Below, piece by piece: positions 1,507-28,396 of a stretch of DNA of 64,000 nucleotides. The notes below the pieces were generated by a model. It was not told the origin of the DNA. It saw only the letters and a list, made by a program, of their open reading frames with translations, and ran no database searches. Each line of letters begins with the position of its first letter. Position 1 is the first letter of the stretch. Both the position numbers and the translations under genes were made by a program. This stretch comes from Candidatus Hydrogenedentes bacterium UBA6118. GTDB taxonomy: Bacteria > Hydrogenedentota > Hydrogenedentia > Hydrogenedentales > SLHB01. Where the stretch lies: positions 33,797 through 97,796 of the forward strand of contig DIWA01000015.1 of the NCBI GenBank assembly GCA_002422525.1. Direction: 5' to 3'.

Positions 1507-1917
1507 CTACCTCGCGTGATCGCCGGGGTGAGGCTGGGCCACGGGGCAGCCGAGGACTTCGCGGATCTCTTGCTCGATGTGGCGCAGGCTGATTGGCTTG
1601 AGCAAGACGCGGGAAACAGACTGCAGCAGCGTGTCGTCGACCCGATCCAGGTACCCTGTGATCATGATGATCGGCAGTCCGGGAGCGACCGACCGCAGTT
1701 CGCGGATGGTCTCGCGACCGTCCATGCGCGGCATGTCGAGGTCCATGGTCACGATGTCGTAGGTGTTCTTGTTGAACAGATCGAGGGCCTCGACGCCGTT
1801 CGATGCGGTGTCGGCGTCGAAGCCGTGCGACGTGAGCCAGCGCCGGATAGCGTTGCGGATGCTCGGTTCATCGTCGACGATAAGTGCGCGTGGCGTGTCT
1901 GTGGGCGTTTCGTTCAT
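1507..1917 (-). CDS. single-domain response regulator (CheY-like receiver)
   Basis: 136 aa. Acidic pocket LIVDDEP, phospho-acceptor Asp in IVTMDLDMP, and the conserved K in LLKP. No output domain. Confidence 0.8.
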   Translation of the reverse strand: MNETPTDTPRALIVDDEPSIRNAIRRWLTSHGFDADTASNGVEALDLFNKNTYDIVTMDLDMPRMDGRETIRELRSVAPGLPIIMITGYLDRVDDTLLQSVSRVLLKPISLRHIEQEIREVLGCPVAQPHPGDHAR

Positions 1918-2192
1918 GCGCTCCGTTGATTCTCCGGATCGCGGTCACGGCAGCCCCCTGTCGTTGTGCGGTCCGAGCGATTGTAGGGCGATCCGGGGTA
2001 TGCGGATCAACTCCTCGGTCCAAAGGCTCGGGGATGTCGGAGTATTTCGTATACACGCAACGGTCCTGTGTGTATTCCCGGTTTGCGCATTATTCCGTGT
2101 CTTCGCATGCGCCACGCCCCCCATGAGCGATGTGATCGGGACGCAGGTATGGGGAGAGGCTGACGATGCCGGAGGGGCTGGACGGCGAGACG

Positions 2193-4140: not shown

Positions 4141-5373
4141 CTAAGCGGGGTCGAAGCGGAGCGCGGTCTCGATGTGGGGCGTGTCGGGGAAGAGGTCGAT
4201 GACGGTGCATGCGGCAGGCCGCCATCCCTCCGCGATGAGCGCGCGGGCGTCGCGGGCGAGCGTGGCGGGGTCGCAAGACACGTAGATGATGCGGTCGGCG
4301 GGGGCGGCGGCCAGGGCCGGGGCGATCGCCTTGGCGCCCTGGCGCGGGGGATCGAGGATCACGGCGTCCCGCGTCTCGTCGGCGAGCGCTTCCGCGAAGT
4401 CCGACTCGCGTCCGGCTTCGTACGTTCCCCTGCCTGTCGCCGCGGCCGCGGCGACCGCGGCGCCGTTGTGGTCCATGCCGAGCACGCGCCGCCCTTCTTC
4501 GGCCAGACGAAGCGACAGATTCCCGGATCCGCAATACAGGTCGAGGACGTTGCGGGCGTCTCCGACCATCGCGCCCACGACGTCCAGCAGCAGGCGGTTG
4601 AGCAGCAGACTGCCTTGGGAGAACGCGCCGTTGACAACGGGGATCCCGTCGAACGAGAAGGCGGCGCGGGGGGCATCGTCGCCGAGCTCCTGGGCCTGGG
4701 GGAACGCGTCGCGTATGAGACGACGCGCCGCGTTGTGCGGGGCGCGACGGGGACGGCGGCCGGCGTGCGTTCTTCGCCCCGGGCGGGATGCTTCCCGCAC
4801 CCACACCAGCACGTCGTCGCCCTCCGGATTGACGGTGATCTCGACGCCTGCCTGTGCGCGGACGGCGCGCAGTTGCGCCAGCGCGGCGTTGAGCCGCGGA
4901 TGACACAGCGGGCAGGCGCAGATGTCGACGATGTCGCGGCTGCCGCGTGCGTAGAACCCCCAGGCCTCGCCGTCGCCGTGGAACTCGGCCCGGGTTCGAT
5001 AGCCCCGGCGGAGGGCGGGATCGGCGGCGATGTCGGGCGCGATGTCGATGCGGGCGATGCGTTGGAGGCAGTCCTGTACGATGCGGCGCTTCCAGGCGAG
5101 CTGGGCGTCGTAGGCGAAGTGGAGCCAGGAGCAGCCGCCGCAGGCGCCGAAGACCCGGCAAGGGGGCGTCTCGCGGTGGGGCGAGGGCTCGATCAGCTCG
5201 ACGATCCGGGCCCACAGGACGCCTTTGGCGGCGCGTTCGACGGCGATGCGGACGGTGTCTCCGGGGAGCGCGAGGGCGACGAAGCAGACCTGTCCGTCGA
5301 TGCGGGCGACGCCGTGACCGCCATGGGCCGCGGCGTCGATCGAAACGATGTGTTCAGCGTTTGATGCGGGCAT
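4141..5373 (-). CDS. rlmD: 23S rRNA (uracil-C5)-methyltransferase, RlmD/RumA family (TRAM + 4Fe-4S + class I SAM MTase)
   Basis: 410 aa. N-terminal TRAM-like beta domain, Cys cluster CRVFGACGGCSW...CACPLC, SAM-binding motif VLDLYCGSGNLSL, and catalytic region ending IIYVSCDPATLARD. Confidence 0.7.
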   Translation of the reverse strand: MPASNAEHIVSIDAAAHGGHGVARIDGQVCFVALALPGDTVRIAVERAAKGVLWARIVELIEPSPHRETPPCRVFGACGGCSWLHFAYDAQLAWKRRIVQDCLQRIARIDIAPDIAADPALRRGYRTRAEFHGDGEAWGFYARGSRDIVDICACPLCHPRLNAALAQLRAVRAQAGVEITVNPEGDDVLVWVREASRPGRRTHAGRRPRRAPHNAARRLIRDAFPQAQELGDDAPRAAFSFDGIPVVNGAFSQGSLLLNRLLLDVVGAMVGDARNVLDLYCGSGNLSLRLAEEGRRVLGMDHNGAAVAAAAATGRGTYEAGRESDFAEALADETRDAVILDPPRQGAKAIAPALAAAPADRIIYVSCDPATLARDARALIAEGWRPAACTVIDLFPDTPHIETALRFDPA

Positions 5374-5451
5374 GGATCCGCTTCCTCCGAAGGGGTCGCA
5401 TACGGCCGTCCTTCGGACGGAATGGTCCGGCGTATGGCGTTGTGCGTACGG

Positions 5452-7077
5452 TCAGGGCGCCTCGGCGGGCCGCGCCTCGCTCAGTCCCGTGAACGGCAGC
5501 GAAGCGACGATGAAGGCCGTGCGCGCCGCGGGCTGTTCCTCGACCCAGCGGGCCAGCGTGGGGGCCGCCTCGTAGTACTTGGCGACCAGCATCCGGCCGA
5601 TGTCGGTGGCCATGAGCACCTGATCGCGGAAGGCGCGAAGGCGCGCCAGGGCTTGCGATCCGTCGCCGTAGGCGGCCTTGAGGGGGCACGTGATGGGCGT
5701 GACGGGACCGCTCGGGCCGTCGGGGGGGTCCGTACCCGCGAGCCACCCGCCTGCTTGGGAGTAGAACAGGCGGAAGGTGGCGAAGTTGTCGTAGTTTCGG
5801 GTCGTATCCGTGCAGGAGTGCATGGGGCCGTTGCTGAGGCAGCCGACGTAGTAGTGCGCGCCGCCCTCGGTGATGAACAGGCCGCAGCCGGAGCTGCCGC
5901 CCTCGGTGACGCCCTCGGTCCACATCACGTCGATCTGCCGTTCCCACGGGGCGGAGGACACATCGACGGTGCGAACGGCGCCGTAGGTGATGCGCATGTG
6001 GGAGCCCTGGGGGTGGTGCATGGCGAAGGCCTGCTCGCCCACGGCGACGGGACGGGTGGTGTAGCCGGCGTAGGCGCGGCCGAGTTCGCCCGGCGGTACG
6101 TCGCTGAGAAGGAGCAGGGTCATGTCGAGGATGGGGTTGGTGGTAAGCAGGGTCGTGCCGTCGGTGCGGGGCAGGCTCGCGAGGGCGGGCGTCTCATTCG
6201 AGTCGCACGCGGCGGCGCGGTAGTCCCAGATGACCTCGGCGACGCTCGCCTCGTCCTGGTCGGCGATGCAATGGTTGGCGGTCATGAAATAGGGCTCATG
6301 CTCAGGGGTGTCGGGGTTGTTGATCAGGATGCCGCTGCAGAGGGCCTGGTCGTAGCCGCCGTTGGTCCAGACCATGAAGCCGACCCCGGTGGAGAGGTTC
6401 TGGATGGTCGGCGAGGTCTCGCAGGCGATGTTGACGTTGCAGGGCAGGGCGATGTCGAATTGCTTGAAGAAATGCGATAAGCCGCGCACGACGAGCCGCG
6501 GGGGATCGGCGGCAGCGGATTTCGCGATGAACACGATGGCGTCGCCCTCGACCGTGGGGGTCCAGCGGCCGTCGGGGAGCGCATCCGATGCACGGTAAGG
6601 GCCGAAGGCGCGGGGGCCCGTGGGGTCGACGACCCAAATCTCGTCGCCGGGCGCGAGGGCGGAGAGATCCAGCACGGCGCGCAGGGCGAAGGCGTCGACC
6701 GATACGAGTTCGCCGACGAAGACGTTGCGGTCGTCCTCGGCGAAGACGGCGGTGAAGAGGTCGGACTCGGCGAGATCGAGCTCCATGCCGACGGCCACGG
6801 TGTGAGATTTGCCCGCGGCCTGGAAAGAGGCGGCGAATGCGTCGTTCATGCCCGCGTAGGCATCGTAGACGACGGGTTCGGCGCGTCGGTCGAGGTATTC
6901 GGCGACGCGCGCCTGGGGCAGCGGGTGGAGCAGCGCGTCGAGGGCGCTCTTGCTGGACACCGGCGGGTCGAAGGCCGTCGGAGCGGTGATGATGGGTTGT
7001 GCGAATGCCGTGCAGGCAAGGCACAGGGTCAAGGCCAGGACGGTAGCCGGAACCGATCGCCGTATGGACGTCGCCAT
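5452..7077 (-). CDS. secreted trypsin-like (S1) serine protease with C-terminal sorting-signal-like domain
   Basis: ATG at 7075-7077 has an AAGGGAGA RBS. It gives the signal peptide MATSIRRSVPATVLALTLCLACTAFA. The catalytic His is in TANHC and the Ser in GGSSGCGLF. The C-terminal 78 aa carry the shared CPLKAAYG...LRAFRDQVL...KYY..AP module. Confidence 0.7.
   Translation of the reverse strand: MATSIRRSVPATVLALTLCLACTAFAQPIITAPTAFDPPVSSKSALDALLHPLPQARVAEYLDRRAEPVVYDAYAGMNDAFAASFQAAGKSHTVAVGMELDLAESDLFTAVFAEDDRNVFVGELVSVDAFALRAVLDLSALAPGDEIWVVDPTGPRAFGPYRASDALPDGRWTPTVEGDAIVFIAKSAAADPPRLVVRGLSHFFKQFDIALPCNVNIACETSPTIQNLSTGVGFMVWTNGGYDQALCSGILINNPDTPEHEPYFMTANHCIADQDEASVAEVIWDYRAAACDSNETPALASLPRTDGTTLLTTNPILDMTLLLLSDVPPGELGRAYAGYTTRPVAVGEQAFAMHHPQGSHMRITYGAVRTVDVSSAPWERQIDVMWTEGVTEGGSSGCGLFITEGGAHYYVGCLSNGPMHSCTDTTRNYDNFATFRLFYSQAGGWLAGTDPPDGPSGPVTPITCPLKAAYGDGSQALARLRAFRDQVLMATDIGRMLVAKYYEAAPTLARWVEEQPAARTAFIVASLPFTGLSEARPAEAP
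5455..5688 (-). other. C-terminal conserved module (copy 3): CPLKAAYGDGSQALARLRAFRDQVLMATDIGRMLVAKYYEAAP... plus hydrophobic tail
   Basis: Aligns position-by-position with the C-termini of the ORFs ending at 28265 and at 30142: Cys, AAYG, [FL]RxFRDxVL, G, YY..[AS]P. Confidence 0.6.
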
Positions 7078-7331
7078 GGTTCTGAATCTCCCTTGGATGC
7101 TCACGTGATTTCACCCCCGGCAAGGAGCGGGACGCGGAGCATAACGCTCATTGGCGGCGCACTGCGCGCGCCGTCGCCCACTATACACCTTGTATCCCGA
7201 TCCCGCACAACGGGTTGCATCGGTCGCTTCCGTTGCGCCGGAAGGCATGGTAGCATCGAGGGGACGCACGAGCGTCGGGCGATTGCCCGTTGAAGGGCGG
7301 ACAGGTTGCGCATCGGCGCGAGGGGAGTGCA

Positions 7332-8999
7332 ATGACGAGCGGTTTGGGGATGATCATCGTGATGGCGACGGCGGCGACAGGGGCGGGCGAGGGGCTTGCG
7401 GCGGATGTCGGCGCCGGTCCGGCGTGGGGCTTCGGCGATCGGCCGCCCGTGTCGATGCCGATCGGGGCGGACGATGCGGGGAGCAAGCTGCCGGTGTATG
7501 CGGATGAGGCCGCGCAGGAGGCGTTCCGGCGGATGGGGCTGGACTTCTACAGCCACCACATCGGCTACCCCGGGCATCCGCTGCCGTTGGAGGAGGACGT
7601 CGAGGCGCTGGACGCGTGGGCGCGGAAGGGCGGCTACGGGTATATCCTGAACAGTGAAGGGGCCTTCGTGACGGAGGGCGACCCGGAGATCCATACCAAG
7701 CCGGGGGCGTTCTTCCAGCCGGATCCGGCGCTGGTGCGGAAATGGAGCGAATCGCCGCATTTCATGGGGATCTGTTACGACGAGGTGTCGCATTGGGTAT
7801 TGGACGGGGGCTGGCCGACGATCTACGAATGGCGGTATGCGCCGTACTTCCACGACGCGCGCGGCGAGTCGTTGGCGGAGGCGTACGCGGCGAATCTGGC
7901 CAACCTGCGGACGCTGATGGCGCGCAGCTACGCGGGGATGGCGGGGAATGCGCGGATCCCGCATGGCACGCCCACAGTGAGCGGCGAGTACGCGATGCCG
8001 GTGTTGCAGCATCTGTTCGCGCGCGCGGGCTGGGTGCAGACGCCGAAGTACCTCAAGGAGTCGATCACGCCGGTGCATGCGGGCATGGTCTTGGGCGCTT
8101 GCCGGCAGTACGGGGTTCGTTACTGGACGTGTCTGGACCTGTGGTTCGTGACGGGGTATCCGGGCCACACGCCCGCGGATCTCGAGTCCGCCCTGCTGTT
8201 CTCCTACTGGACGGGCGCCGACTACGCGTACGTGGAGAACCTGAATTGGGAGGGGAGTCTGTACACCGAGTCGGAGGAAGGGGTGACGCTGAACGCCTAC
8301 GGCGAGGCGGTGCGGGAGTTTCGCCTGGACTACCTGCCGAGGCATCCGCGGAGCATTCGACTCGAGGAGTTCGCGCCGGAGATCGTGATCGTGCGGTTCG
8401 ACGACAGCGACTGGGGTCAGGTGAAGACGGGGACGTGGATCACGGGGGATTTGTACGGCGCGGAGGATCTGCAGCCGGACGCCGACACGCGCTACTGGAT
8501 CCGGATCTGGCACGTGCTCACGCATGGCGCCATGAAGCCGATCGCGGTGAACTACAACAACCCGGAGATGGGCGACGAGTTTGCGTTCTGGATGCCGGCG
8601 AACAATGTCGCGGTGTACGACCACCTTGCGGCGGATCCGATGCTGTACGACGGGGTGAAGCTGGCGTTCCTCACAGGGAAGGAGATTGACGCGAGGAGCA
8701 TGGCGACGATCGAGGCGCGGGTTCGGGATCACGGGATGACCGTCGTGTCGACGACTCGACTTGCGCCCGCGCGGTTGGCGCGGCCCGACGGGGCGCCGAT
8801 GGCGATCACCGAGGACGGCCGGGGGCGGTGGATCGTGACGGACAGCGTGGACGATCCGGCGGTTCGCGAACTGCTTCGGCCCTATCTGGGCGACCCCGAA
8901 CAGCTTCGGTACGTGTTCGGGGAGCATGAGGTCGTCTTCACGAAGCCGTCGACCGACGACGAGGCGATAGGCGTTCGCGTGGGGCGGTTGGCGCGGTGA
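7332..8999 (+). CDS. hypothetical protein, possibly glycoside-hydrolase-like (TIM-barrel-like, Trp/Tyr-rich)
   Basis: ATG at 7332 has a GAGGGGAG RBS 6 nt upstream. The N-terminus MTSGLGMIIVMATAATGAG is hydrophobic. Aromatic-rich segments (GICYDEVSHWVLDGGWPTIYEWRYAPYF, WTCLDLWFVTGYPGH) are typical of carbohydrate-active enzymes, but I recognise no family. Confidence 0.45.
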   Translation: MTSGLGMIIVMATAATGAGEGLAADVGAGPAWGFGDRPPVSMPIGADDAGSKLPVYADEAAQEAFRRMGLDFYSHHIGYPGHPLPLEEDVEALDAWARKGGYGYILNSEGAFVTEGDPEIHTKPGAFFQPDPALVRKWSESPHFMGICYDEVSHWVLDGGWPTIYEWRYAPYFHDARGESLAEAYAANLANLRTLMARSYAGMAGNARIPHGTPTVSGEYAMPVLQHLFARAGWVQTPKYLKESITPVHAGMVLGACRQYGVRYWTCLDLWFVTGYPGHTPADLESALLFSYWTGADYAYVENLNWEGSLYTESEEGVTLNAYGEAVREFRLDYLPRHPRSIRLEEFAPEIVIVRFDDSDWGQVKTGTWITGDLYGAEDLQPDADTRYWIRIWHVLTHGAMKPIAVNYNNPEMGDEFAFWMPANNVAVYDHLAADPMLYDGVKLAFLTGKEIDARSMATIEARVRDHGMTVVSTTRLAPARLARPDGAPMAITEDGRGRWIVTDSVDDPAVRELLRPYLGDPEQLRYVFGEHEVVFTKPSTDDEAIGVRVGRLAR

Positions 9000-9080: not shown

Positions 9081-9118
9081 AGATGAAACGCGTTGAACGC
9101 AGTACAGGAGGAGCACCG

Positions 9119-9424
9119 ATGAAACGCATACTGACTATGGCATTCGCGCTGTTGATGGTCGTTGGGCTGGCCGTGGGCTGCACCCCGAAAGAGGCGGCCA
9201 CGGACGACGAGGCCACGACCGAGGGCATCTCGGACGAGGCGACCGAAGAGGACGCTGAGGCCGGCATGGGAAGCTTCGCGCCTGACGCTGCCGAGGAGGC
9301 TGCTGAGGCCCCGGCCGACGTGGAAGCGGTCGCCCCGGTAGAGGCGGCTCCGGCGGATCCGGCTCCGATGGCTCCGGCGGCTCCGGTTGAGGAAGCCCCG
9401 GCCGAGGAAGCGCCCACGATGTAG
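9119..9424 (+). CDS. small acidic Ala/Glu/Pro-rich lipoprotein (intrinsically disordered)
   Basis: ATG at 9119 is preceded by AGGAGG. The signal peptide and lipobox are MKRILTMAFALLMVVGLAVG-C. The rest is low-complexity E/A/P/D-rich. Confidence 0.6.
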   Translation: MKRILTMAFALLMVVGLAVGCTPKEAATDDEATTEGISDEATEEDAEAGMGSFAPDAAEEAAEAPADVEAVAPVEAAPADPAPMAPAAPVEEAPAEEAPTM

Positions 9425-9481
9425 GGTGCAGGCAGGGTGTTCTGTACGGACCCCTCCTTCGATCCCGATCCAAGTCAGTGA

Positions 9482-9522
9482 AGCCCGAACGCCCCCGGTG
9501 TGCGCGTTCGGGCTTTCTCGTT
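9482..9522. terminator. bidirectional intrinsic terminator between convergent genes
   Basis: Perfect 11-bp inverted repeat: AGCCCGAACGC (9482-9492) pairs with GCGTTCGGGCT (9504-9514). It is followed by TTTCTCGTT. It lies between the lipoprotein gene and ftsY. Confidence 0.5.
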
Positions 9523-9562: not shown

Positions 9563-10555
9563 TCAGGTGAAGATGGCCTCGACGTAGTCGACGGCGGAGA
9601 AGGGCTGGAGATCCTCGACGCCTTCGCCGACGCCGATGTACTTGATGGGGATGCCGAGCTGCCGCTGGATGGCGACGGCGACGCCGCCTTTGGCGGTGCC
9701 GTCGAGCTTGGTGACGATGAGGCCGGTGACGTTGAGGGCCTCCGTGAAGACCTTGGCCTGCTGCAGGCCGTTCTGGCCCGTGGTGGCGTCGAGCACGAGC
9801 AGCACGTCATGGGGCGCCTCAGGATAGCGCTTGCCGATGACGCGCTGGATCTTGCGCAGCTCCTCCATGAGATTGACCTTGGTGTGCAGGCGGCCGGCCG
9901 TGTCGATGAGGAGGCAGTCGATGCCGCGCGCGATTGCCGCGTCCGTTGCGTCGAATGCGACCGCGGCGGGGTCCGCGCCGTCTTGATGCCTGATGATGGG
10001 GATGTCGACGCGCTCGCTCCAGATGGTGAGCTGCTCAACGGCGGCGGCGCGGAAGGTGTCCGCCGCGGCGAGCATGACGGTCTTGCCCTGTTGTTTGAGA
10101 TGGGAGGCGAGCTTGCCGATCGTGGTGGTCTTGCCGGATCCGTTGACGCCGACGACGAGGGTGACATGGGGGCCGCCGTCGGCGGCGAACCGCAGGGTAT
10201 GGTCGCCGGGTTCGAGGGCGGCGACCAGCTCCTCCTTGAGAACGGCGTAGAGTTCGTCCGGATTCTGGAGGCGGCGTTGGCGCACGGCGGTGCGCATCTC
10301 GTCGACGAGGGCGAGGCTGAGCTCGACGCCGAAATCGGCCTCGACGAGGATCTCCTCGAGTTCGTCGTAGACATCGTCGTTGATCTGCGTGTGGCCTGAG
10401 AAGACCCGCTTGACGTTGTCGACGAGGTTGCTGCGCGTCTTGCCGAGCTGTTCGCGAAGCCGGCCGAGGAATCCCTTATTGGCTTGTGTCATGTTGATGG
10501 GTCCTGTTGGGGGTTGGGTACGGGAGGAAGCTACCACGGCGCCGCGATGCAACAC
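9563..10555 (-). CDS. ftsY: signal recognition particle receptor FtsY
   Basis: 330 aa with an SRP-GTPase NG domain. Motifs: P-loop GVNGSGKTTTIGKLA, DTAGR, and the G4 motif TKLDGTAKGG. Confidence 0.9.
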   Translation of the reverse strand: MLHRGAVVASSRTQPPTGPINMTQANKGFLGRLREQLGKTRSNLVDNVKRVFSGHTQINDDVYDELEEILVEADFGVELSLALVDEMRTAVRQRRLQNPDELYAVLKEELVAALEPGDHTLRFAADGGPHVTLVVGVNGSGKTTTIGKLASHLKQQGKTVMLAAADTFRAAAVEQLTIWSERVDIPIIRHQDGADPAAVAFDATDAAIARGIDCLLIDTAGRLHTKVNLMEELRKIQRVIGKRYPEAPHDVLLVLDATTGQNGLQQAKVFTEALNVTGLIVTKLDGTAKGGVAVAIQRQLGIPIKYIGVGEGVEDLQPFSAVDYVEAIFT

Positions 10556-10597
10556 AAACCGCGGGCGCGGCGGCAGGGAGGGCGTTCGGCGCGGGGG

Positions 10598-11788
10598 TCA
10601 GCCTTCGGCGGCGGTGTCCTGCGTCGCGGGCGCCGGCTGCTGCGCGGGCGCGGGGTTGGGGTTGAAGCGGCCGGCGTACTCGAGCTCGCAGCAGCCGCGG
10701 CAGAGGGCGAAGCCGGATTCGCGGCGGCGTTGACGGAAGCGGCGCAGCTCGGGGCCGTTCCAGATCTCTTTGAGCGGTTTTTCGCGCACGTTGCCGACCT
10801 TCTGGATGAAGCAGGGGTAGACGCCGCCCTTGGCGCCGATGTAGAGGTTCATCCAGACGGCGCGGCACTCGAACTGCGCGAGGTCGTAGCCCTGGTCGTA
10901 GTGGTTGAGGACTTCTTCGTAGGGCATGCGGGGGAGGCGGACTTCGATGCCGAGGCGCCTGGCCTCGGCGAGGGCGCCGCGCAGGGCCTTGTCGAGGCGG
11001 GCGCGATTGATGGTGGGCATGGCGATGTCCTCGCGGGAGAACTCGCCGGGATCGACGAGGCCGACGCGTTCGTAGTCGTCGAGGGATCGCATCTCGGTGA
11101 GGAGGTTGAGGACGTCGGCGCCGGCGTCGGCGGCGATGCGCGGCATCTCCGGCAGGCAATCGAGGTTCTCGTCCTGGACCACGGTGTTCATGTGGATGAG
11201 GGGGGCGTGTTTGCCCAGGCGGTCGCGGTGTTCGCGAAGCGTCGTGACGCCGGCGATGCTGCGGTCGAAGGCGCCCGTCTGGGCGCGGATCACGTCGTGG
11301 ACGTCGCGCGTGCCGTCGATCGAGACGCCGAGGAAGTTGAAGCCGCGCATGCCGAACCATTTTGGGGCGAGTTCGGCGCAGCGGCGGGCGCGCTCTTCGG
11401 TGAGCATGGTGGCGTTCGAGATGAAGTGGACGCGACGCCGGGCGCAGGCGTACTCGAGGATCTCCATGAAGTCCTTGCGGACGAAGACCTCGCCGCCGGT
11501 GAAGGTGAGGAGGCTGAAGCGGGCGGTCTGGTCGATGACGTTGCGCCACTCGTCCGTGGTCAGTTCGCCTTCGGCTTGCACGCGCCCGGGGGTGGTCTTG
11601 TACCACTCGATGTACTGGCACATTTTGCAGCGCAGGTTGCATCGGCGGGTGACTTCGAGGAAGTAGTGCTGGGCGGGGAAGCTGGCGCCGCTTCTGGAGA
11701 GGCGGTAGGGGGCGGCGGTGTAGAGTCGCGTGAGGCCGCGATAGAGTCGCGTGATCAGGCCCATGGGGCTGTATGCGGTGGCATCCAT
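10598..11788 (-). CDS. radical SAM / SPASM-domain protein
   Basis: The CNLRCKMCQY (CxxxCxxC) cluster is near the N-terminus. The C-terminal SPASM Cys pattern is CRAVW...YPCF...CRGCCELEY. The likely start is the ATG at 11786-11788 (MDATAY, RBS GAGGA); the track uses an upstream TTG. Confidence 0.8.
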   Translation of the reverse strand: MDATAYSPMGLITRLYRGLTRLYTAAPYRLSRSGASFPAQHYFLEVTRRCNLRCKMCQYIEWYKTTPGRVQAEGELTTDEWRNVIDQTARFSLLTFTGGEVFVRKDFMEILEYACARRRVHFISNATMLTEERARRCAELAPKWFGMRGFNFLGVSIDGTRDVHDVIRAQTGAFDRSIAGVTTLREHRDRLGKHAPLIHMNTVVQDENLDCLPEMPRIAADAGADVLNLLTEMRSLDDYERVGLVDPGEFSREDIAMPTINRARLDKALRGALAEARRLGIEVRLPRMPYEEVLNHYDQGYDLAQFECRAVWMNLYIGAKGGVYPCFIQKVGNVREKPLKEIWNGPELRRFRQRRRESGFALCRGCCELEYAGRFNPNPAPAQQPAPATQDTAAEG

Positions 11789-11930
11789 GACTATCCTCGG
11801 GGTTCGGCGCAACGGGGCGGGTCGGCATACGCTCCCGCGTGTCCCTCCGTTGGTAAGAGCAACAGGCGCCTGGTCGACCGTATTTCGCGCGGGCGCGGAT
11901 GATGGATGATCGCGTCGCGCGGCGTCGCGT

Positions 11931-12611
11931 CTAGCTTAGCACGGGTTGACCCGGATCCAGGAGCGGGCCGAGCGGGCAGGCGTCGCATTTGGGGGAGCGG
12001 CGACAGAAGTCCTTGCCGACGAACACGATAAGCCCGTGGTACTCGCCGTAGACGTGGATGTCTCGGGGGAGATGCGCTTCGAACAGGGCTTGCAGGGCGT
12101 GGTAGTCGATGTCCGGGGGACAGAGGCCGTGGCGACTGAAGATGCGGCGGGTGTAGGCGTCGATGACGAACACGGGCTTGTCGCAGGCGTAGAGCAGAAT
12201 ATCGTCGGCGGTCTCGGGGCCGATGCCGTGGAGGGCGAGGAGCTCGCGGCGCAGGGCGGGCATGGGGCGTGCGGCCAGCCGGGCCATGTCGCCGTCGTAG
12301 TGGTCGACGAGATGGCGGCAGAAGTGGAGCAGGCGCTTGGTCTTCACGCGGAAGAAGCCCGCGGGACGGAGCAGTTCGTGCAGTTCCTCGTCGCCGCGGG
12401 CGAGGAGGGCGCGGGGGTCGAGGGCGTCGGCGGCCTTGAGGTTGTCGATGGCGCGCTCGACGTTGGTCCATGCGGTGTTCTGTGTGAGGATGGCCCCGAC
12501 GGCGATCTCGAACGGGGTCTCGCCGGGCCACCAGTGCGTGGGGCCGTAGTGGGCGTGCAGGGCGTCGTGGAAGCGCAGTATTGCGTCGTATTGCGGCCGG
12601 GCGTCGGTCAT
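11931..12611 (-). CDS. endonuclease III-like HhH-GPD DNA glycosylase
   Basis: HhH motif LLALHGIGPETADDIL, a catalytic Asp, and the C-terminal [4Fe-4S] loop CRRSPKCDACPL. Confidence 0.75.
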   Translation of the reverse strand: MTDARPQYDAILRFHDALHAHYGPTHWWPGETPFEIAVGAILTQNTAWTNVERAIDNLKAADALDPRALLARGDEELHELLRPAGFFRVKTKRLLHFCRHLVDHYDGDMARLAARPMPALRRELLALHGIGPETADDILLYACDKPVFVIDAYTRRIFSRHGLCPPDIDYHALQALFEAHLPRDIHVYGEYHGLIVFVGKDFCRRSPKCDACPLGPLLDPGQPVLS

Positions 12612-13528
12612 GGGCGGATCAGACTCAGGGCGACGGGGGTCTTGGCGTCGGCGCGGGTCTCGGCGGCGAGACTGCCGAGGTTGACGGCGAGTTCGAGGAA
12701 GCCGGCGCTCTGGACCAGGGCGAGGCGTTCGCCGGCGGGGACGTCGCTGTAGGTGGTCTTGAACGGGGCCTCGAACGTCTCCTCGCCCAGGGTGATGCGC
12801 AGGCGGGCGTCCGGCCGGATGTCGGCGTCCGCGAGCAGCGTCGCCGGGATGTTGGTGACCAGATTGCCGTAGGGATCGGAGCGGAGGACGACGCCTTCGA
12901 TCGCGTCGTCGCGGATCCGGGCCTGGGGGATCTCGAAGCGGATGAAGTCGGGCAGATCCGGTCCGACGGAGGCGATTGGCGCGCCCGCGGCCAGGGCGGC
13001 GGCCAGCGGGCCGAAGATGTCGCGGCCGTGGAAGGTGTGGGACTCGGCATCGGCCCAGAGGTCGCGGTTCACGCCCTCGCGCGCGTCGGCGACGCCGTCG
13101 CGCTGGGCGACGACGGTGAGCAGGCCGTTGTCGGGCGCGACGAAGAGCTGGTTCTTGCGGGTGCGCAGGACGAGGACGCGACGGTCCGTGCCGACGCCGG
13201 GGTCAACGACGACGCAGAATACGGTCCCCTCGGGGAAGGCGGAGCAGCCCTCGGCCAGCATGAAGGCCCCGGTGAGGATGTCGTACGCGGGCACGCTGTG
13301 GGTCAGGTCGACGGCGCGGACGTCGGTCTGTTTGGTCGCGATTGCGCCCCGGAGCATCCCGACGTAGAGCGAGTCCGCGCCGTAGTCGGTGAGCAGGGCG
13401 ACGATGCCGTTGGGTTGGAAGGCTGAGGAATCGGGCGGCGCGTCTTGGGCGGCGGCGGGGGCGACGGCGGCGAGTAAGGCGAGACAGCACAGCGCGCTGA
13501 TGACGTATCGGGTTCGGATGGACACCAT
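12608..13528 (-). CDS. SAM hydroxide adenosyltransferase (DUF62 family) with N-terminal signal peptide
   Basis: ATG at 13526-13528 has a GGAGG RBS. The signal peptide is MVSIRTRYVISALCCLALLAAVAPAAAQ. The DUF62 core shows LTDYGADSLYVG, VDPGVGT and SAGFLELAVNLGS. Its stop overlaps the next gene's start by 4 nt. Confidence 0.65.
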   Translation of the reverse strand: MVSIRTRYVISALCCLALLAAVAPAAAQDAPPDSSAFQPNGIVALLTDYGADSLYVGMLRGAIATKQTDVRAVDLTHSVPAYDILTGAFMLAEGCSAFPEGTVFCVVVDPGVGTDRRVLVLRTRKNQLFVAPDNGLLTVVAQRDGVADAREGVNRDLWADAESHTFHGRDIFGPLAAALAAGAPIASVGPDLPDFIRFEIPQARIRDDAIEGVVLRSDPYGNLVTNIPATLLADADIRPDARLRITLGEETFEAPFKTTYSDVPAGERLALVQSAGFLELAVNLGSLAAETRADAKTPVALSLIRP

Positions 13529-13671
13529 GGGTTCCTCCAGCGGATGGGTTGTCTGGGGCGCCCGGCTCCGCGAGGCCGGGGCGCGAGGCGCGTATTGTAC
13601 CGATCGCGTATGGCCCCTGCACGGTTTTCGAGGTTGTGGCGGGGGGCGGGGTGTGAAATACTGACGGCGCC

Positions 13672-15930
13672 GTGATCCGGGCGGAACGGCAGGCGTTGGG
13701 CCGACGAAGAGGAGGCATGGCCGTGTATCTTGCGTTGTTGCCGTTGGGAATCTTGTGTGCATCGATGGGGGCGCCGGCGCCGCCGCCCGCGGACCTGCTC
13801 GAGGACGTGCCGGAGCATTTCCCGCGGTTCTATGTGGAAGGGGCTGAGGAGGACGCGCAATGGCTGGGGCGGTACCTATGGTATCACTACAAGAACCGGT
13901 TGGGAGCGGGGCCGACGCTGTTCAACAAGGAGTACATCGCGACGTCCGACCTGTGGATGGGCGGCTCGATGCACCCGCACCGGAACAAGACGGCGCAGGA
14001 GCAGTTTCGCGCGGACCTGTTGGCGATCCGGATGCAAGACGACGGGTATGTCGAGACGCATCAGCACTTCTCGCACGCGCATGAGCAGGGCTGGCCGTTC
14101 CCGATGTGGGTGCAGGGGGATCCCGGTCGGCTGACGGCGGGGTGGCATTTCCAGGAGCAGGGGTTCGGGTGGGCCTGGGAACACTATCTGAACCACCAGC
14201 CCGATTCGCCGTTCGGGCGGGCGCGGGCGATCGAAGGATGGACGCTGGAGAACGTCGCGTCGGAGGGGATCGTGGACGGGAGGTGGCGCTTGACGGCCAC
14301 AGGCCCGTCGCCGGCGATCACCACGCCCGCGGGGCCGACGATCGACGCGTTCAACGCGCCGTATCTGCAACTGCGGTGGAAGCGGAGCGGGGAAGCGCCG
14401 GACGGCGTGCTGCCGTATCTGGAGTGGAAGCGCGAAGGCGACGCCGCGTTCAGCGAAGAGCGGCGCGTGTCGATCCTTCCGGGGACGGGGAACCCGGACT
14501 ACGAGAAGCAGACGGGCGTGAATCACGCGATGATCGCGATGCACGGCCATCCGCAGTGGGAGGGGACGATCACGGCGATCCGGCTGTCGCTGGCGCCGGG
14601 CGAGTCGGACGTGACCTTCGACGTGGATTCGTTCTTCACGGTGTACGACACGCGGCACAGCATCAACAACCCGATCTACATCCTGGCGTGCTGGGACTAC
14701 TACCGGTGGACGGGCGACGCAGGGTTCCTGCAGGAGGTGATCGGCCGGATGCGCACGGCGCTGCGGTACCAGCAGACGGTGATGGGCGGGCAGGAGCTGA
14801 ACCATATTCGCAATCCGTGGCCGGGCCATGACGGATTGCCCGGGTTCACGGTGCATCCGGACGGATCGAAGGAGGTCCGCCACGGCCACGGGATCGGCAA
14901 TAACTATTGGGACCTGCTGCCGTTCGGCTGGGACGACATGTACGCGACGTCGCAGTACTACGCGTCGCTGTTGGCGATGGCGGAGGTTGAGGACGCGGTG
15001 CGGCGGCATCCGGAGTGGGGGATCGCGCAGGGCGCCGATGCGTTCGAGCCGGAGGCGCTGCGGGAGCATGCGGCGCAGGTGAAGCAGACGGCGAACCGGA
15101 AGTTCTGGAACGCTGAAACGGGGCGGTTCTTTGCGTGCATCGACAGGGATGGGAACGCGCATGACTTCGGCTTTACCTTCCTGAACCTCGACGCGATCTG
15201 GTACGGGATTGCGTCGGACGAGCGCGCGGCGTCGATCATGAGCTGGATCAACGGCGATCGGATTGTGGAGGGCGACACGTCGCAGGGCGCGGACATCTAC
15301 CATTGGCGGTTCGGTCCGCGGGCGACGACGCTGCGTAACGAGACGTGGTACGTGTGGGTGTGGCATGCGCCGGAGTCGATCCCGTGGGGCGGCCAGGTGC
15401 AGGACGGCGGCGCGGTGCTGGGGTTCAGCTTCTACGACCTCTGGGCGCGCTTGCAGACGTTCGGTCCGGACGATGCGTGGACGCGGCTGCAGGCCCTGCT
15501 GGCATGGGAGCGGGACGTGTGGGCCGAGGGCGGCTACCGGCCGTACTACGCGGACGGCAGCAAGGGCACGACGCTGCAGGGCGGCGGCACGGCCGGCGGG
15601 CTGGGGATTGACCAGGAGTTCTACGAGAGCAGCCTCGTGCCGACGGTCTTCGTGCGGGGGTTCCTCGGGATCGAGCCGCTGGCGGACGGGCTGCTGATCG
15701 CGCCGAAGCTGCCCGAGGCGCATCCGCGCATGGGGATGACGAACCTGTTCTACCGCGGGGCGCGGCTGGACATCCTGGCGGATGCGGCGGGCGTGTCGAT
15801 CCAGGCGCACGACGTGCCGCCGGAAGGCGTGGTGATCGTGTTCCTCGCGCCGCACGCCGACGCGGAGGAGCAGACCGGGACCGTGTTCCGGCTGGCGCAG
15901 TCGGGCGAGTACCGGTTCACGAAGCAGTAG
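13672..15930 (+). CDS. six-hairpin (alpha/alpha)6 glycoside hydrolase, secreted
   Basis: GTG at 13672 gives a positively charged n-region (RQALGRRRGG) and h-region (MAVYLALLPLGILCA). The alternative start is the ATG at 13717. The six-hairpin GH signatures are NPIYILACWDYYRWTGDAGFL and GNNYWDLLPFGWDDMYATSQYYASL. Confidence 0.55.
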   Translation: MIRAERQALGRRRGGMAVYLALLPLGILCASMGAPAPPPADLLEDVPEHFPRFYVEGAEEDAQWLGRYLWYHYKNRLGAGPTLFNKEYIATSDLWMGGSMHPHRNKTAQEQFRADLLAIRMQDDGYVETHQHFSHAHEQGWPFPMWVQGDPGRLTAGWHFQEQGFGWAWEHYLNHQPDSPFGRARAIEGWTLENVASEGIVDGRWRLTATGPSPAITTPAGPTIDAFNAPYLQLRWKRSGEAPDGVLPYLEWKREGDAAFSEERRVSILPGTGNPDYEKQTGVNHAMIAMHGHPQWEGTITAIRLSLAPGESDVTFDVDSFFTVYDTRHSINNPIYILACWDYYRWTGDAGFLQEVIGRMRTALRYQQTVMGGQELNHIRNPWPGHDGLPGFTVHPDGSKEVRHGHGIGNNYWDLLPFGWDDMYATSQYYASLLAMAEVEDAVRRHPEWGIAQGADAFEPEALREHAAQVKQTANRKFWNAETGRFFACIDRDGNAHDFGFTFLNLDAIWYGIASDERAASIMSWINGDRIVEGDTSQGADIYHWRFGPRATTLRNETWYVWVWHAPESIPWGGQVQDGGAVLGFSFYDLWARLQTFGPDDAWTRLQALLAWERDVWAEGGYRPYYADGSKGTTLQGGGTAGGLGIDQEFYESSLVPTVFVRGFLGIEPLADGLLIAPKLPEAHPRMGMTNLFYRGARLDILADAAGVSIQAHDVPPEGVVIVFLAPHADAEEQTGTVFRLAQSGEYRFTKQ

Positions 15931-15998
15931 GCGCAGGCGACGCGAAAGCGCCCGCCGCGGGGACGGATTCCTGTCCAGCGGCGGGCGCGCTGGAGAAC

Positions 15999-16078
15999 GG
16001 CGTGAAGGGGTGTGGGACGAGCCTCGATCGCGTGGGCCAGCATGTGCTGGAGATAGATCTCGTCGCTATGCTGCGTCA
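15999..16078 (-). pseudogene. hepT (HEPN/DUF86 toxin) 5' remnant
   Basis: ATG at 16076-16078 overlaps the mntA stop in the classic ATGA-type arrangement. It encodes MTQHSDEIYLQHMLAHAIEA, a HepT-like N-terminus, and then loses all HEPN conservation with no Rx4-6H motif. The rest of the frame lies over the 3' end of the GH gene on the other strand. Confidence 0.35.
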
Positions 16079-16371
16079 TATACTGGCTCTGCTTCCCCAA
16101 GCACCTTGTCGCGAAAGCCAGCGCTCAGCGAACTGGCGAGGTTGAGATCCACTTGCCGGTCGAGCAGTTCGGATAGCTCCGCTTCGATCGTCCCCAGTCG
16201 GATGAACCCGACTCGCTCGCCTGGTGCGAACTCGGCGAGGAGGTCGATGTCGCTCTCGGGGGAGAAGTCTCGTCGGAGCACGGAGCCGAATGCGGCCAGC
16301 CTGCGGATCCGGTGTTTCTGGCAGAAGGCGCTGAGAGCCTCGTCAGAGATACCCAATCGGCTGCGGTCCAT
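16066..16371 (-). CDS. mntA: MntA-type nucleotidyltransferase antitoxin
   Basis: ATG at 16369-16371 (MDRSRLGISDEALSAF...). Minimal nucleotidyltransferase motif GSVLRRDFSPESDIDLL. Confidence 0.65.
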   Translation of the reverse strand: MDRSRLGISDEALSAFCQKHRIRRLAAFGSVLRRDFSPESDIDLLAEFAPGERVGFIRLGTIEAELSELLDRQVDLNLASSLSAGFRDKVLGEAEPVYDAA

Positions 16372-16634
16372 GTGGCGCCTCCGTGTCAACCTGCTCGATC
16401 TTTGCACGAGACCCGAGTCTTACTCAACCCGGATTCGACGACCAAGTGCACGGCAGGTCGCCGAGTTCATACAGGAGGTGCAACGCGGGGAGAGAGGCCC
16501 TTTCCCGTCGGAGGCGTCCGTCGCTGATTGAGCGCGGCGGCGCAAGTAGTCTGTCCCTGTCCCATACGCCGAGTGAGGGTAGGCGCCCGCGCGTTGGTCG
16601 GCGCATAGGATCGGGGCAGGTCAACGTCGTGACG

Positions 16635-20956: not shown

Positions 20957-21121
20957 GCTGCGTCTACGGAGGGCGCGACCGGCGCCTCACTCTGCTGGTA
21001 CGCGGAAGCGAGCGCTTGATCGGATTGCAGCGGCCTTGATAGGGTGCGCGCTGATTGACGGGGTTTGCAGACCGACCGGCGCGGGCCCGTGCGCGCGGCG
21101 TGTCGGAGGGAGTTTCCAAGG

Positions 21122-22324
21122 GTGAGCGGTGAGAAGAGTCAGTTCACGCGCCTCGTAGAGCTGGGGTTCCGCGTTGCGGCGCACTGGAAGCCCATGACGC
21201 TGTTCGCCCTGATCGGGGGCGTGGTCCTTGGTCTCGCGGCGTACTACGTGCCGCCGCCCTCCTACACGTGCGAGGTGCTGGTGTATCTGCAGCCGCAGCC
21301 GTGGACCGGCGAGACGGCGGGGCGGATCGACCTGGAACAGGAGATTGTGTTCACGCCGAAGCCGTTCTCGGCGTACCTGTCGCGCCCGCCGGAGGCGAAG
21401 GACTACGTACAGATCATGACATCCGACGGGGTGTTGGGGGACGTGCTGGACCGGTTCGTGGAGCGTCACGGCAGCGAGTACCGCGAGAAGGAGATTCCCA
21501 CGCGCCAACGGCTGCGACGGACGATCTCGGCATATGCGCCGACGGTGCTCAGGACGCCGTATGAAGTGGAACACACGCCTACGATCTACCTGTCGACCAA
21601 GGCGCCGAAACCCGAGATGGCGTATCAGCTCATGGTGATCTACCTCGAGGTGATCCAGGAGTGGACGCGAGACCTGACGTACGCGGAGCGGGCGAAGAAG
21701 GCCTTCGCGTCGGTGGAGGCGGAGTACAACCGCCTGCTGGGCGAGCTCGATGCGTTGGACGCGGAGCGGATTGCGCTGGCGCGGGAGAACGCGGAGAAGC
21801 TGGAGGCCGTGCAGCACGAGTGGTCTCGCAAAGCCGCGGAGTACGAGGCGGAGACCGAGCGGCTGGTGCTGGAGCTGATGGGCGAGTGGACCGAGCGGAT
21901 CGCGGAGGCCCCGGACGGCGTTGCGCGGGAAGTTGCGAAGGAGGAGCGGGACCAGGCGATCGAGGCGCTGCGCGCGGAGCGGCGCTACGGGCTGGAGGAT
22001 ATCCTGCGGGCGGGCGAGGGGGCCTACAGCGCCCTGCGGCGGGAGTGCGAAATCGCCGAGCAGAAGCTCGAGCGACGGTACCGGATGGAGCTCGAGATCA
22101 CGCAGAACGTGGCCGCGGCGTTGACGCGGGCCGCGCCGGTGATCGCGGAGGAGTTCGAGGAGATCGTCGTGATGAACGAGCCGCGGATGCCGGAGGAGCC
22201 GGAGAAGGCGTCGGTGGTGCTGTTCGTGGCGGGCGGCGTCGTGTTGTGCGGTCTGGCGGCGCTGGCCTACGTGATTGGCAAAGTGCTGGTGGGAGACGTG
22301 CGGTCGGCGGTGCAGCAGGGATAG
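21122..22324 (+). CDS. polysaccharide chain-length determinant (Wzz/PCP-like) protein
   Basis: GTG at 21122 has a GGAGGG RBS. N-terminal TM after FRVAAHWKPMTLFALIGGVVLGLAAYYVPPPSYTCEVLVYL matches the Wzz N-terminal pattern. It has a long coiled-coil periplasmic region and a C-terminal TM VVLFVAGGVVLCGLAALAYVIG. Confidence 0.5.
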   Translation: MSGEKSQFTRLVELGFRVAAHWKPMTLFALIGGVVLGLAAYYVPPPSYTCEVLVYLQPQPWTGETAGRIDLEQEIVFTPKPFSAYLSRPPEAKDYVQIMTSDGVLGDVLDRFVERHGSEYREKEIPTRQRLRRTISAYAPTVLRTPYEVEHTPTIYLSTKAPKPEMAYQLMVIYLEVIQEWTRDLTYAERAKKAFASVEAEYNRLLGELDALDAERIALARENAEKLEAVQHEWSRKAAEYEAETERLVLELMGEWTERIAEAPDGVAREVAKEERDQAIEALRAERRYGLEDILRAGEGAYSALRRECEIAEQKLERRYRMELEITQNVAAALTRAAPVIAEEFEEIVVMNEPRMPEEPEKASVVLFVAGGVVLCGLAALAYVIGKVLVGDVRSAVQQG

Positions 22325-28265: not shown

Positions 28266-28396
28266 AGGGGTCCGACGGGAGTCGGGGAAGCCCACGGTAC
28301 ATATGCTAGGACCCCTCGGGGGGTCTGGAACCGGCCTTTCCGCAGGATGCGATCTCGATCGGGGATCGCTTTGGGAAGGCCCTGAGGAGCCAACAG

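Follow-up and report, generated by a model that had tools for sequence, protein, structure and literature searches.

What, if anything, unites a DUF62 gene, a DNA glycosylase gene, a radical SAM gene and ftsY that stand in a row in the genome of Candidatus Hydrogenedentes bacterium UBA6118 (G+C content of 67 %)? The four genes occupy positions 9563-13528 of a 64,000-nt stretch of contig DIWA01000015.1 (hereafter the window; all positions count from its start) and are co-oriented on the minus strand. A preliminary description had presented them as one operon joining two enzymes that consume S-adenosyl-L-methionine (SAM), a repair glycosylase and the receptor of the signal recognition particle (SRP); the four minus-strand genes and the domains named in it were recovered by our Pfam and NCBIfam searches. 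The explanation that we favour, and to which we give an even chance of being right, is a cluster specific to Hydrogenedentota in which an exported DUF62 protein is translationally coupled to a cytoplasmic alkylpurine glycosylase, an orphan twitch-type radical SAM enzyme is often appended, and ftsY is incidental. The most noteworthy outcome is the putatively exported DUF62 subfamily, which, on sequence features and genomic context, suggests a concrete and testable second role in the open question of DUF62 function.

The DUF62 protein matched SAM_HAT_N (PF01887, 162 bits against a cut-off of 26.3, 8e-48) and SAM_HAT_C (PF20257, 68 bits against 25.5, 1e-18), the same fold signature as in the characterised DUF62 enzymes, or SAM hydroxide adenosyltransferases (PH0463, MJ1651, Salinispora StDUF62 and 2zbu). 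The structure 2zbu from Thermotoga was its closest solved relative (E 3e-53). In PH0463, the water-activating Asp-Arg-His triad consists of D68, R75 and H127 (PMC4859513). The triad, which the characterised enzymes carry in the motifs VDPGVGTxR and FHGRD, is intact in the window protein, with D109 and R116 in VDPGVGTDR and H167 in FHGRD; in the homologue alignment, D109 and R116 do not vary, and conservation of H167 is at least 90 %. We take these three residues to be the counterparts of the PH0463 triad, judging by their position in the motifs. The window protein nevertheless scored far under the NCBIfam equivalog cut-offs for (R)-S-adenosyl-L-methionine hydrolases (NF058624, 157 bits against 350; NF053629, 127 against 470). 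An identity as fluorinase or chlorinase was rejected, as TIGR04507 gave 109 bits against a cut-off of 400 and the hydrolase triad is retained. No second DUF62 copy was found within the 64-kb window.

What sets the window protein apart from the characterised enzymes is an N-terminal extension of 42 residues that carries a predicted Sec signal. Its N-terminus, starting at ATG 13528, reads MVSIRTRYVISALCCLALLAAVAPAAAQ and shows an n/h/c layout: R5 and R7 are followed by a hydrophobic core at residues 9-27 (19 residues, mean Kyte-Doolittle value 2.37), and A-A-A stands before Q28. The predicted cleavage point is AAA27, with Ala at -3 and -1, and a Pro/Asp-rich spacer comes after it. None of the other three proteins has a hydrophobic segment of such a kind. 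The alignment to 2zbu pairs query residue 43 with 2zbu residue 2, and everything before it, 42 residues in all, therefore comes on top of the catalytic domain. Of the 120 best homologues, which reach down to 40 % identity, about 110 have a similar N-terminus right before the PNGxVxLLTDYG strand. Signal peptides were judged here and below by sequence heuristics (charge, hydrophobicity and AxA layout), and by these the Sec signal peptide seen in the preliminary description appears genuine and no mis-called start, being a conserved extension relative to the solved cytoplasmic DUF62 proteins.

To see how common such N-termini are, 80 DUF62 loci, one genome per species (GTDB), were retrieved with the family alignment. 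A simple heuristic assigned a signal to the protein in 47 of them, several more were recognised by eye, and 28 proteins begin a few residues before the first strand, as the characterised cytoplasmic enzymes do. The signal-bearing proteins came from Hydrogenedentota, Poribacteria, Acidobacteriota, Thermotogota, Binatia, KSB1, Planctomycetota and one Methanosarcinales archaeon, and some of them carry lipobox-like cysteines. In a rough neighbour-joining tree without support values they group together, apart from the signal-less proteins, which is suggestive of a single clade. Exported DUF62 proteins, as far as sequence can tell, are thus a large subfamily distributed over many phyla, which makes the window protein a typical member of its clade. 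The statement that DUF62 enzymes are normally cytoplasmic stands for the characterised members, not for the family, in which signal-bearing proteins are numerous across phyla. The triad and some 30 further core positions conserved to at least 90 % were equally kept in signal-bearing and signal-less proteins; we looked for active-site changes specific to the exported proteins and found none, the sole discriminating column being a loop position. Some signal-bearing proteins (P0034, P0063 and other Hydrogenedentes homologues of 410-440 aa) end in an Emfourin domain (PF20242), a metalloprotease-inhibitor fold whose fusion to DUF62 is unexplained.

Neighbouring genes in other phyla gave a hint at what an exported DUF62 might do. 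DUF62 neighbours were clustered over the 80 genomes, and the recurrent ones were annotated and re-screened by tblastn. The Acidobacteriota sample comprised 19 loci (L021-L075) from Terriglobales-type genomes, all figures referring to signal-bearing DUF62 genes. A gene for a TonB-dependent-receptor-like outer-membrane protein follows on the same strand in 11 of the 19, while genes facing DUF62 encode a PNP_UDP_1 phosphorylase (16 loci) and an adenosine-deaminase-domain protein (10 loci). The N-terminus of the L027 deaminase, the sole copy translated, is a signal-like segment. This cluster looks like extracytoplasmic adenosine salvage. The same coherent theme, in which adenosine would be formed outside, deaminated, imported and phosphorolysed, is the reason why we favour a scavenging role, and we propose tentatively, as a possible reading that is more probably wrong than right, that the signal-bearing proteins may be distinct and widespread extracytoplasmic adenosyl-sulfonium hydrolases harvesting adenosine and methionine from SAM or related compounds in the environment. 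An exported DUF62 would yield adenosine just as known extracytoplasmic purine salvage systems do (ADA2/ADGF-type deaminases, periplasmic nucleotidases). Acidobacteriota place DUF62 next to a signal-bearing deaminase, PNP and a TonB-dependent receptor, whereas the window has no such neighbours. According to the literature searched, those salvage systems include no exported enzyme that cleaves SAM or another adenosyl-sulfonium, and our search for exported DUF62 or extracellular SAM scavenging returned nothing relevant; the exported subfamily seems to be unreported so far in that literature.

The same data bear on a more conventional explanation. SAM methylates DNA non-enzymatically, giving 3-methyladenine and 7-methylguanine. 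The N-terminus of the window DUF62 might be no export signal at all, or an anchor facing the cytoplasm, and the protein an ordinary (R)-SAM hydrolase that, together with the glycosylase, limits the damage caused by SAM, that is non-enzymatic DNA methylation and the inactive SAM epimer. The link through SAM is chemically attractive, and the active site is that of the characterised hydrolases. However, the positive charges before the core and the AxA and Pro/Asp-rich spacer after it give the orientation of an exported protein, several relatives have lipobox-like cysteines instead, in Acidobacteriota an outer-membrane receptor and a deaminase with a signal are among the neighbours, and a SAM riboswitch is absent. 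We therefore consider this explanation very unlikely; the link through SAM damage fails if DUF62 is exported, and the missing riboswitch adds to this. For the same reason, the two SAM-consuming enzymes of opposite chemistry highlighted in the preliminary description could share no SAM pool if one of them acts outside the cytoplasm.

The function of DUF62 is itself a matter of dispute. According to a paper of 2025, the hydrolysis of (R)-SAM may not be what the family really does (PMC12120602); a second one defends this activity for thermophilic archaea (bioRxiv 10.1101/2025.08.29.672840). A clade that combines export signals with an unchanged active site would not be repairing a cytoplasmic cofactor pool. 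If the scavenging role is true, a family of disputed function gains a second physiological role, and Hydrogenedentota, Acidobacteriota, Poribacteria, Planctomycetota and Thermotogota gain an undescribed route of nutrient scavenging.

We then asked which of the four genes belong together. Gene order was searched with the DUF62 family against one genome per species, followed by tblastn with the window proteins. In all seven closest loci (L001-L007; DUF62 46-53 % and glycosylase 61-64 % identical), which are from Hydrogenedentota or likely mis-binned relatives, the glycosylase gene comes immediately after DUF62; the two are side by side in none of the remaining 73 DUF62 loci. Another 20 genes, taken from the window's first 34 kb, were compared with L001-L007, and not one was shared at a comparable position. 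The full trio of DUF62, glycosylase and radical SAM genes was found, with differing flanks, in L081, L082/83 and L084/85. A metagenome scan of 80 glycosylase loci placed DUF62 beside the glycosylase in L088 and L093-L095 and in no other locus; L095 has the radical SAM gene as well. Of three more glycosylase look-ups, one returned a solitary gene, another an abutting pair, and the third a pair interrupted by a gene of the metallo-beta-lactamase fold. The radical SAM gene also occurs in other contexts. L087 has glycosylase and radical SAM genes without a DUF62 remnant, a contig represented by P0147 has a solitary radical SAM gene beside an amylase gene, and another solitary copy lies between ispG and def in L086, which belongs to the same assembly as L004, where the DUF62-glycosylase pair is on another contig. 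Altogether, DUF62 was followed by an adjacent glycosylase gene in 17 independent loci of Hydrogenedentota type with otherwise unrelated neighbours, while the radical SAM gene was beside the glycosylase in seven independent loci, about one third, and alone elsewhere.

The conserved core is therefore the DUF62-glycosylase pair, often extended to a trio, and not a four-gene operon, since ftsY is adjacent only in the window genome and L173, and roughly one locus in three has the radical SAM gene attached. Conservation of gene order, which the preliminary description had left as a question, thus holds for DUF62 with the glycosylase and in part for the radical SAM gene, not for ftsY. The 4-nt overlap of DUF62 and glycosylase recurs in the distant lineage L083, and the trio is tightly packed elsewhere too, its genes being 8 and 18 nt apart in L001 and 11 and 55 nt apart in L084. 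Both observations argue for selected co-transcription of the core.

On another view, these would be unrelated housekeeping genes that were inherited side by side, their co-transcription not being under selection and the cluster having no collective meaning. In one family-level group (L081, L082, L087) a longer block of genes for acetyl-CoA synthetase, rhodanese, DUF62, glycosylase, radical SAM enzyme, PfkB, Rpe and CYTH is indeed syntenic, and the variable linkage, loss or inserted gene in L168, L170 and L172 would also suit such a view. However, the pair is kept at 46-53 % DUF62 identity though all other genes within 10 kb differ, its 4-nt overlap occurs in two distant lineages (the window and L083), the genes abut in L171, and no internal terminators were found. 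We regard inherited synteny as unlikely.

The product of ftsY consists of an NG domain and a short N-terminal amphipathic segment, has the SRP54 GTPase and SRP54_N domains (two Pfam hits, of 259 and 52 bits), and was the sole protein of the four to pass a curated equivalog cut-off (TIGR00064, 359 bits against 260.7, 1e-107). The gene adjoins the cluster only in the window genome and in the near-identical L173 (about 90 %), so its inclusion in the unit had to be dropped: ftsY is a bystander outside the conserved unit. In L122 an ftsY homologue (50 % identity, 4997-5905, minus strand) is divergent from a gene of the glycosylase family (6001-6651, plus strand); this is the only other adjacency of the two that we saw and is probably coincidental.

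The glycosylase gave an HhH-GPD match of 5e-18 in Pfam, and its best NCBIfam match was the 3-methyladenine glycosylase model PRK13913, at 103 bits against a cut-off of 192. Its best solved relative was MagIII of H. pylori (1pu6, 1e-20), with structures of endonuclease III (EndoIII) next, and the database name of its family is 'endonuclease III-related protein'. The HhH motif is GIGPETAD, a WWP motif is present, the catalytic D151 is invariant, and E133 stands at the position of the EndoIII lyase lysine. As E133 replaces that lysine and D151 is invariant, the protein is best read as a putative monofunctional alkylpurine DNA glycosylase. It has the HhH-GPD fold, WWP, the catalytic Asp and the missing lyase lysine in common with MagIII and with MpgII of Thermotoga. 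MagIII is without a cluster, whereas the window protein, which scores under the PRK13913 cut-off, has cluster-type cysteines. C98, C203, C209 and C212 are invariant in the family alignment, as is L218 at the position of the fourth EndoIII cysteine. Three of the four EndoIII cluster cysteines are thus present (CX5CX2C), the canonical C-X6-C-X2-C-X5-C being absent, and C98 might complete an unusual Fe-S cluster with the three C-terminal cysteines. An identity as EndoIII proper (Nth) was rejected, given the missing lyase lysine, the loop C-X5-C-X2-C with Leu218 and a TIGR01083 score of 77 bits against 212. The family is widespread, with 46-69 % identity in the 80 metagenome loci, and its non-canonical cluster cysteines are a further feature to which this locus draws attention.

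The radical SAM enzyme reached no NCBIfam cut-off, AhbD (94 bits against 500) and NirJ (90 against 515) being the best, and its Pfam SPASM match was 55.7 bits. Identities as anSME, AhbD, NirJ, PqqE or MftC were rejected, all scoring far below the cut-offs. The curated cut-offs of the well-characterised cofactor subfamilies (AhbD, NirJ, PqqE, MftC, MoaA and the W-cofactor maturase) were missed without exception, and the enzyme does not fall into any of them. Its invariant cysteines are C50, C54 and C57, which form CX3CX2C, and C308, C326, C363, C366 and C367. The latter are five auxiliary cysteines against seven in the SPASM motif, hence enough for one auxiliary cluster and nearer to a twitch than to a full SPASM domain; the label 'SPASM-type' in the preliminary description overstates the case, since only five of the seven are present. 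The core and a Cys-rich C-terminal domain are common to the window enzyme, to twitch enzymes (DesII, BlsE, BtrN) and to SPASM maturases (SkfB, SuiB, CteB, anSME), whereas the five-cysteine pattern CX17C...CX2CC, a family-specific N-terminal helix and the lack of a curated family are its own. The AlphaFold (AF2) model (predicted local distance difference test, pLDDT, of 87) matched SkfB, BlsE, DesII, SuiB, CteB, anSME, MoaA and PqqE about equally (template-modelling (TM) scores of ~0.5-0.57), SkfB, BlsE and DesII being the nearest folds at ~0.55.

Homologues of this enzyme at 51-96 % identity were nearly all labelled Hydrogenedentes. The family is small: an exhaustive profile-free search among 1.84 billion representatives returned only 154 clusters at E<=1e-30, and ten sampled relatives were also below every curated cut-off. 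One of the representatives, P0362 (769 aa), is a fusion of an N-terminal DegT/DnrJ/EryC1 pyridoxal-phosphate-dependent aminotransferase to a radical SAM part that is 45 % identical over the whole window enzyme, the family-specific N-terminal helix included. The arrangement recalls the DesI/DesII pair of desosamine synthesis. Neither the window nor any of the loci retrieved has a DegT homologue close to the radical SAM gene. The cluster in this way also flags an uncharacterised radical SAM family, largely of Hydrogenedentota, with a Rosetta-stone link to sugar aminotransferases.

Because of this fusion, the lack of room for a precursor gene and the variable genomic contexts, we suppose that the substrate is a small molecule, possibly a nucleotide-linked sugar, and not a peptide; this is a lead and not a demonstration. 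The absence of a precursor gene beside the enzyme, observed already in the preliminary description, was borne out: the flanking gaps, 142 and 105 nt long, contain no precursor-like open reading frame (ORF), a small ORF conserved beside the gene was not found either, and elsewhere the gaps flanking it measure only 18 nt (L001) and 55 nt (L084). That the enzyme matures a ribosomal peptide with an unrecognised precursor, the neighbours being accessory, is suggested by the Pfam SPASM match and by the peptide maturases SkfB (the top fold match), SuiB and CteB among its fold neighbours. We consider it extremely improbable, as there are only five auxiliary cysteines, the flanking gaps just given are too short for a peptide gene, no small ORF is conserved, the other contexts are ispG/def or amylase, peptidase or transporter partners are absent, and a relative is fused to DegT. 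An anti-phage defence system was also considered and rejected, PADLOC having returned superfamily-level matches only (pVip radical SAM core, P-loop).

In another proposal, the three genes serve a single adenosyl- or nucleoside-centred pathway. The radical SAM enzyme would make or modify a nucleoside-linked intermediate, on the model of how hopanoid side chains (HpnH/HpnG) and blasticidin (BlsE with a base-releasing hydrolase) are made, the HhH-GPD protein would be an N-glycosidase acting on this small molecule in place of DNA, and the exported DUF62 would process the product or a precursor outside the cell. The tightly spaced trio recurs in divergent genomes (the window, L001, L081, L082, L084 and L095), and each of the three folds is one that deals with adenine, adenosyl or nucleoside groups. 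Sugars linked to a nucleoside or nucleotide are the substrates of BlsE and DesII, two fold neighbours of the radical SAM enzyme, and there is a weak match to HpnH. However, the glycosylases of this family, from many phyla, are 50-69 % identical and usually solitary (71 of the 80 metagenome loci), and they have retained the catalytic Asp and the DNA-binding HhH, just as a housekeeping DNA repair enzyme would. The radical SAM gene is mostly unlinked, in one genome on a different contig (L086 against L004), and DUF62 would work in another compartment than the other two. A common pathway thus seems improbable to us.

The account that we favour would then run as follows. DUF62 would be exported via Sec and cut after Ala27, and outside the cytoplasm hydroxide would attack C5' of SAM or of a similar environmental adenosyl-sulfonium. 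Adenosine and methionine would be released for uptake, as nutrient scavenging and not as cytoplasmic (R)-SAM repair. The glycosylase, acting as a monofunctional enzyme, would strip alkylated purines from DNA and would probably hold an unusual Fe-S cluster made of its three C-terminal cysteines and Cys98, while the substrate modified by the radical SAM enzyme would be no peptide but a small molecule, with a sugar linked to a nucleotide or nucleoside as a plausible candidate. The three genes would be co-transcribed and co-regulated without a single shared biochemical pathway. The cluster does not show a new mechanism, and the four-gene 'operon' dissolves into a pair with variable companions.

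Several observations weigh against this account. It offers no mechanistic rationale for a lasting linkage of an exported enzyme and a DNA glycosylase, so the persistence of the pair remains unexplained by it, and a functional link may have been missed. The glycosylase occurs without DUF62 in seven independent loci, and L168 has a signal-bearing DUF62 of Hydrogenedentota type without the glycosylase. An uncleaved signal-anchor fits the DUF62 sequence equally well. No transporter or salvage gene for SAM, adenosine or methionine was found near the window DUF62, and the loci from Acidobacteriota are closely related to one another (PNP 71-79 % identical), which means that their synteny is possibly inherited and not selected. 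As for the radical SAM enzyme, its top fold match is a peptide maturase, and the DegT fusion is known from a single cluster representative.

The layout of the locus is summarised in the table below.

Table. Features of the locus and example neighbours from Acidobacteriota. Plain positions refer to the window; those preceded by an L number refer to that locus.
Feature	Position	Strand	Basis
Exported DUF62 / SAM_HAT protein (predicted export), 306 aa	12608..13528	-	Pfam SAM_HAT_N + SAM_HAT_C
Predicted Sec-type signal peptide, residues 1-27	13448..13528	-	charge/hydrophobicity layout, AxA
GGAGGA ribosome-binding site (Shine-Dalgarno), 4 nt before ATG 13528	13533..13538	-	sequence reading
MagIII/MpgII-like HhH-GPD glycosylase, 226 aa, COG2231 type	11931..12611	-	Pfam HhH-GPD + HHH
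Orphan radical SAM enzyme, twitch/partial-SPASM C-terminal domain, 396 aa	10598..11788	-	Pfam Radical_SAM + SPASM
ftsY, SRP receptor, 309 aa	9563..10492	-	TIGR00064
Perfect 12-bp GC-rich hairpin, ~47 nt past ftsY stop	9481..9515	-	RNA folding
Divergent intergenic region, presumed promoter region	13529..13713	.	ORF map
Acidobacteriota example neighbours	L027:11748-13583(-), L027:10814-11671(-), L030:3509-6898(+)		

The sequence ATGA at 12611-12608 contains both the DUF62 stop and the glycosylase start, and the 4-nt overlap reported for the two genes was confirmed by it. The radical SAM start is best placed at ATG 11788, with GAGGA 5 nt upstream, which gives 396 aa, and the ftsY start at ATG 10492, with the typical FtsY N-terminus MTQANKGFLGRL, which gives 309 aa. 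With these supported starts the glycosylase-radical SAM gap is 142 nt and the radical SAM-ftsY gap 105 nt. The values of 118 and 42 nt given earlier had been obtained from the longest ORFs (TTG 11812 and GTG 10555); we corrected them because the two ATG codons are better supported and because independent gene calls on the ~90 %-identical contig L173 match, with proteins of 305, 226 and 396 aa and the same spacing (4-nt overlap, 142 nt, 105 nt).

Neither of the two internal intergenic regions folds more stably than shuffled sequence. The hairpin after ftsY reached -24.9 kcal/mol (z = -3.4, none of 200 shuffles being equally stable) and is likely to mark the end of the transcript, although no U-tract follows it. 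Searches for sigma-70 promoters and intrinsic terminators gave nothing beyond the shuffle expectation, and no sigma-70-like consensus was found in the divergent intergenic region. Rfam identified a single distant tRNA in the whole window and no riboswitch or other RNA element at or between the genes. By the usual signs of an operon, all four genes share the strand and short gaps and have no hairpin between them, while the order is kept for two or three of them only.

Several further features of the window were noticed along the way. According to the ORF map, DUF62 is divergent from a plus-strand gene for a 738-aa signal-bearing protein. This ORF, which starts at 13714 and bears a signal peptide, is one of four long ORFs (7290-8999, 13714-15930, 21059-22324 and 28310-30772, all on the plus strand) that show coding-type codon bias and a high third-position GC, lie among glycoside-hydrolase and esterase genes, and have no significant Pfam match. 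Convergent with ftsY is a small ORF (9083-9424, plus strand) with a lipoprotein-like signal (LAVGC) followed by an acidic, low-complexity tail rich in Ala, Glu and Pro; it had no Pfam match.

On the minus strand at 16066-16407 and 15750-16100, a gene for an MNT-type nucleotidyltransferase (Polbeta/NTP_transf_2) overlaps the start of a 116-aa ORF without a Pfam match; the two may be a toxin-antitoxin pair. In L168 an MNT/HepT pair stands close to DUF62 as well. A stand-alone response-regulator receiver protein is encoded at 1507-1944 (minus strand), and its counterparts in Poribacteria (L012-L018, 32-36 % identical) lie about 6 kb upstream of DUF62. In spite of the constant offset, they probably reflect a common domain and not a real link. 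Finally, the GC skew is unusually strong and uniform, being positive (0.09-0.24) in every 2-kb bin of the window (1-64000), whatever the strand of the genes.

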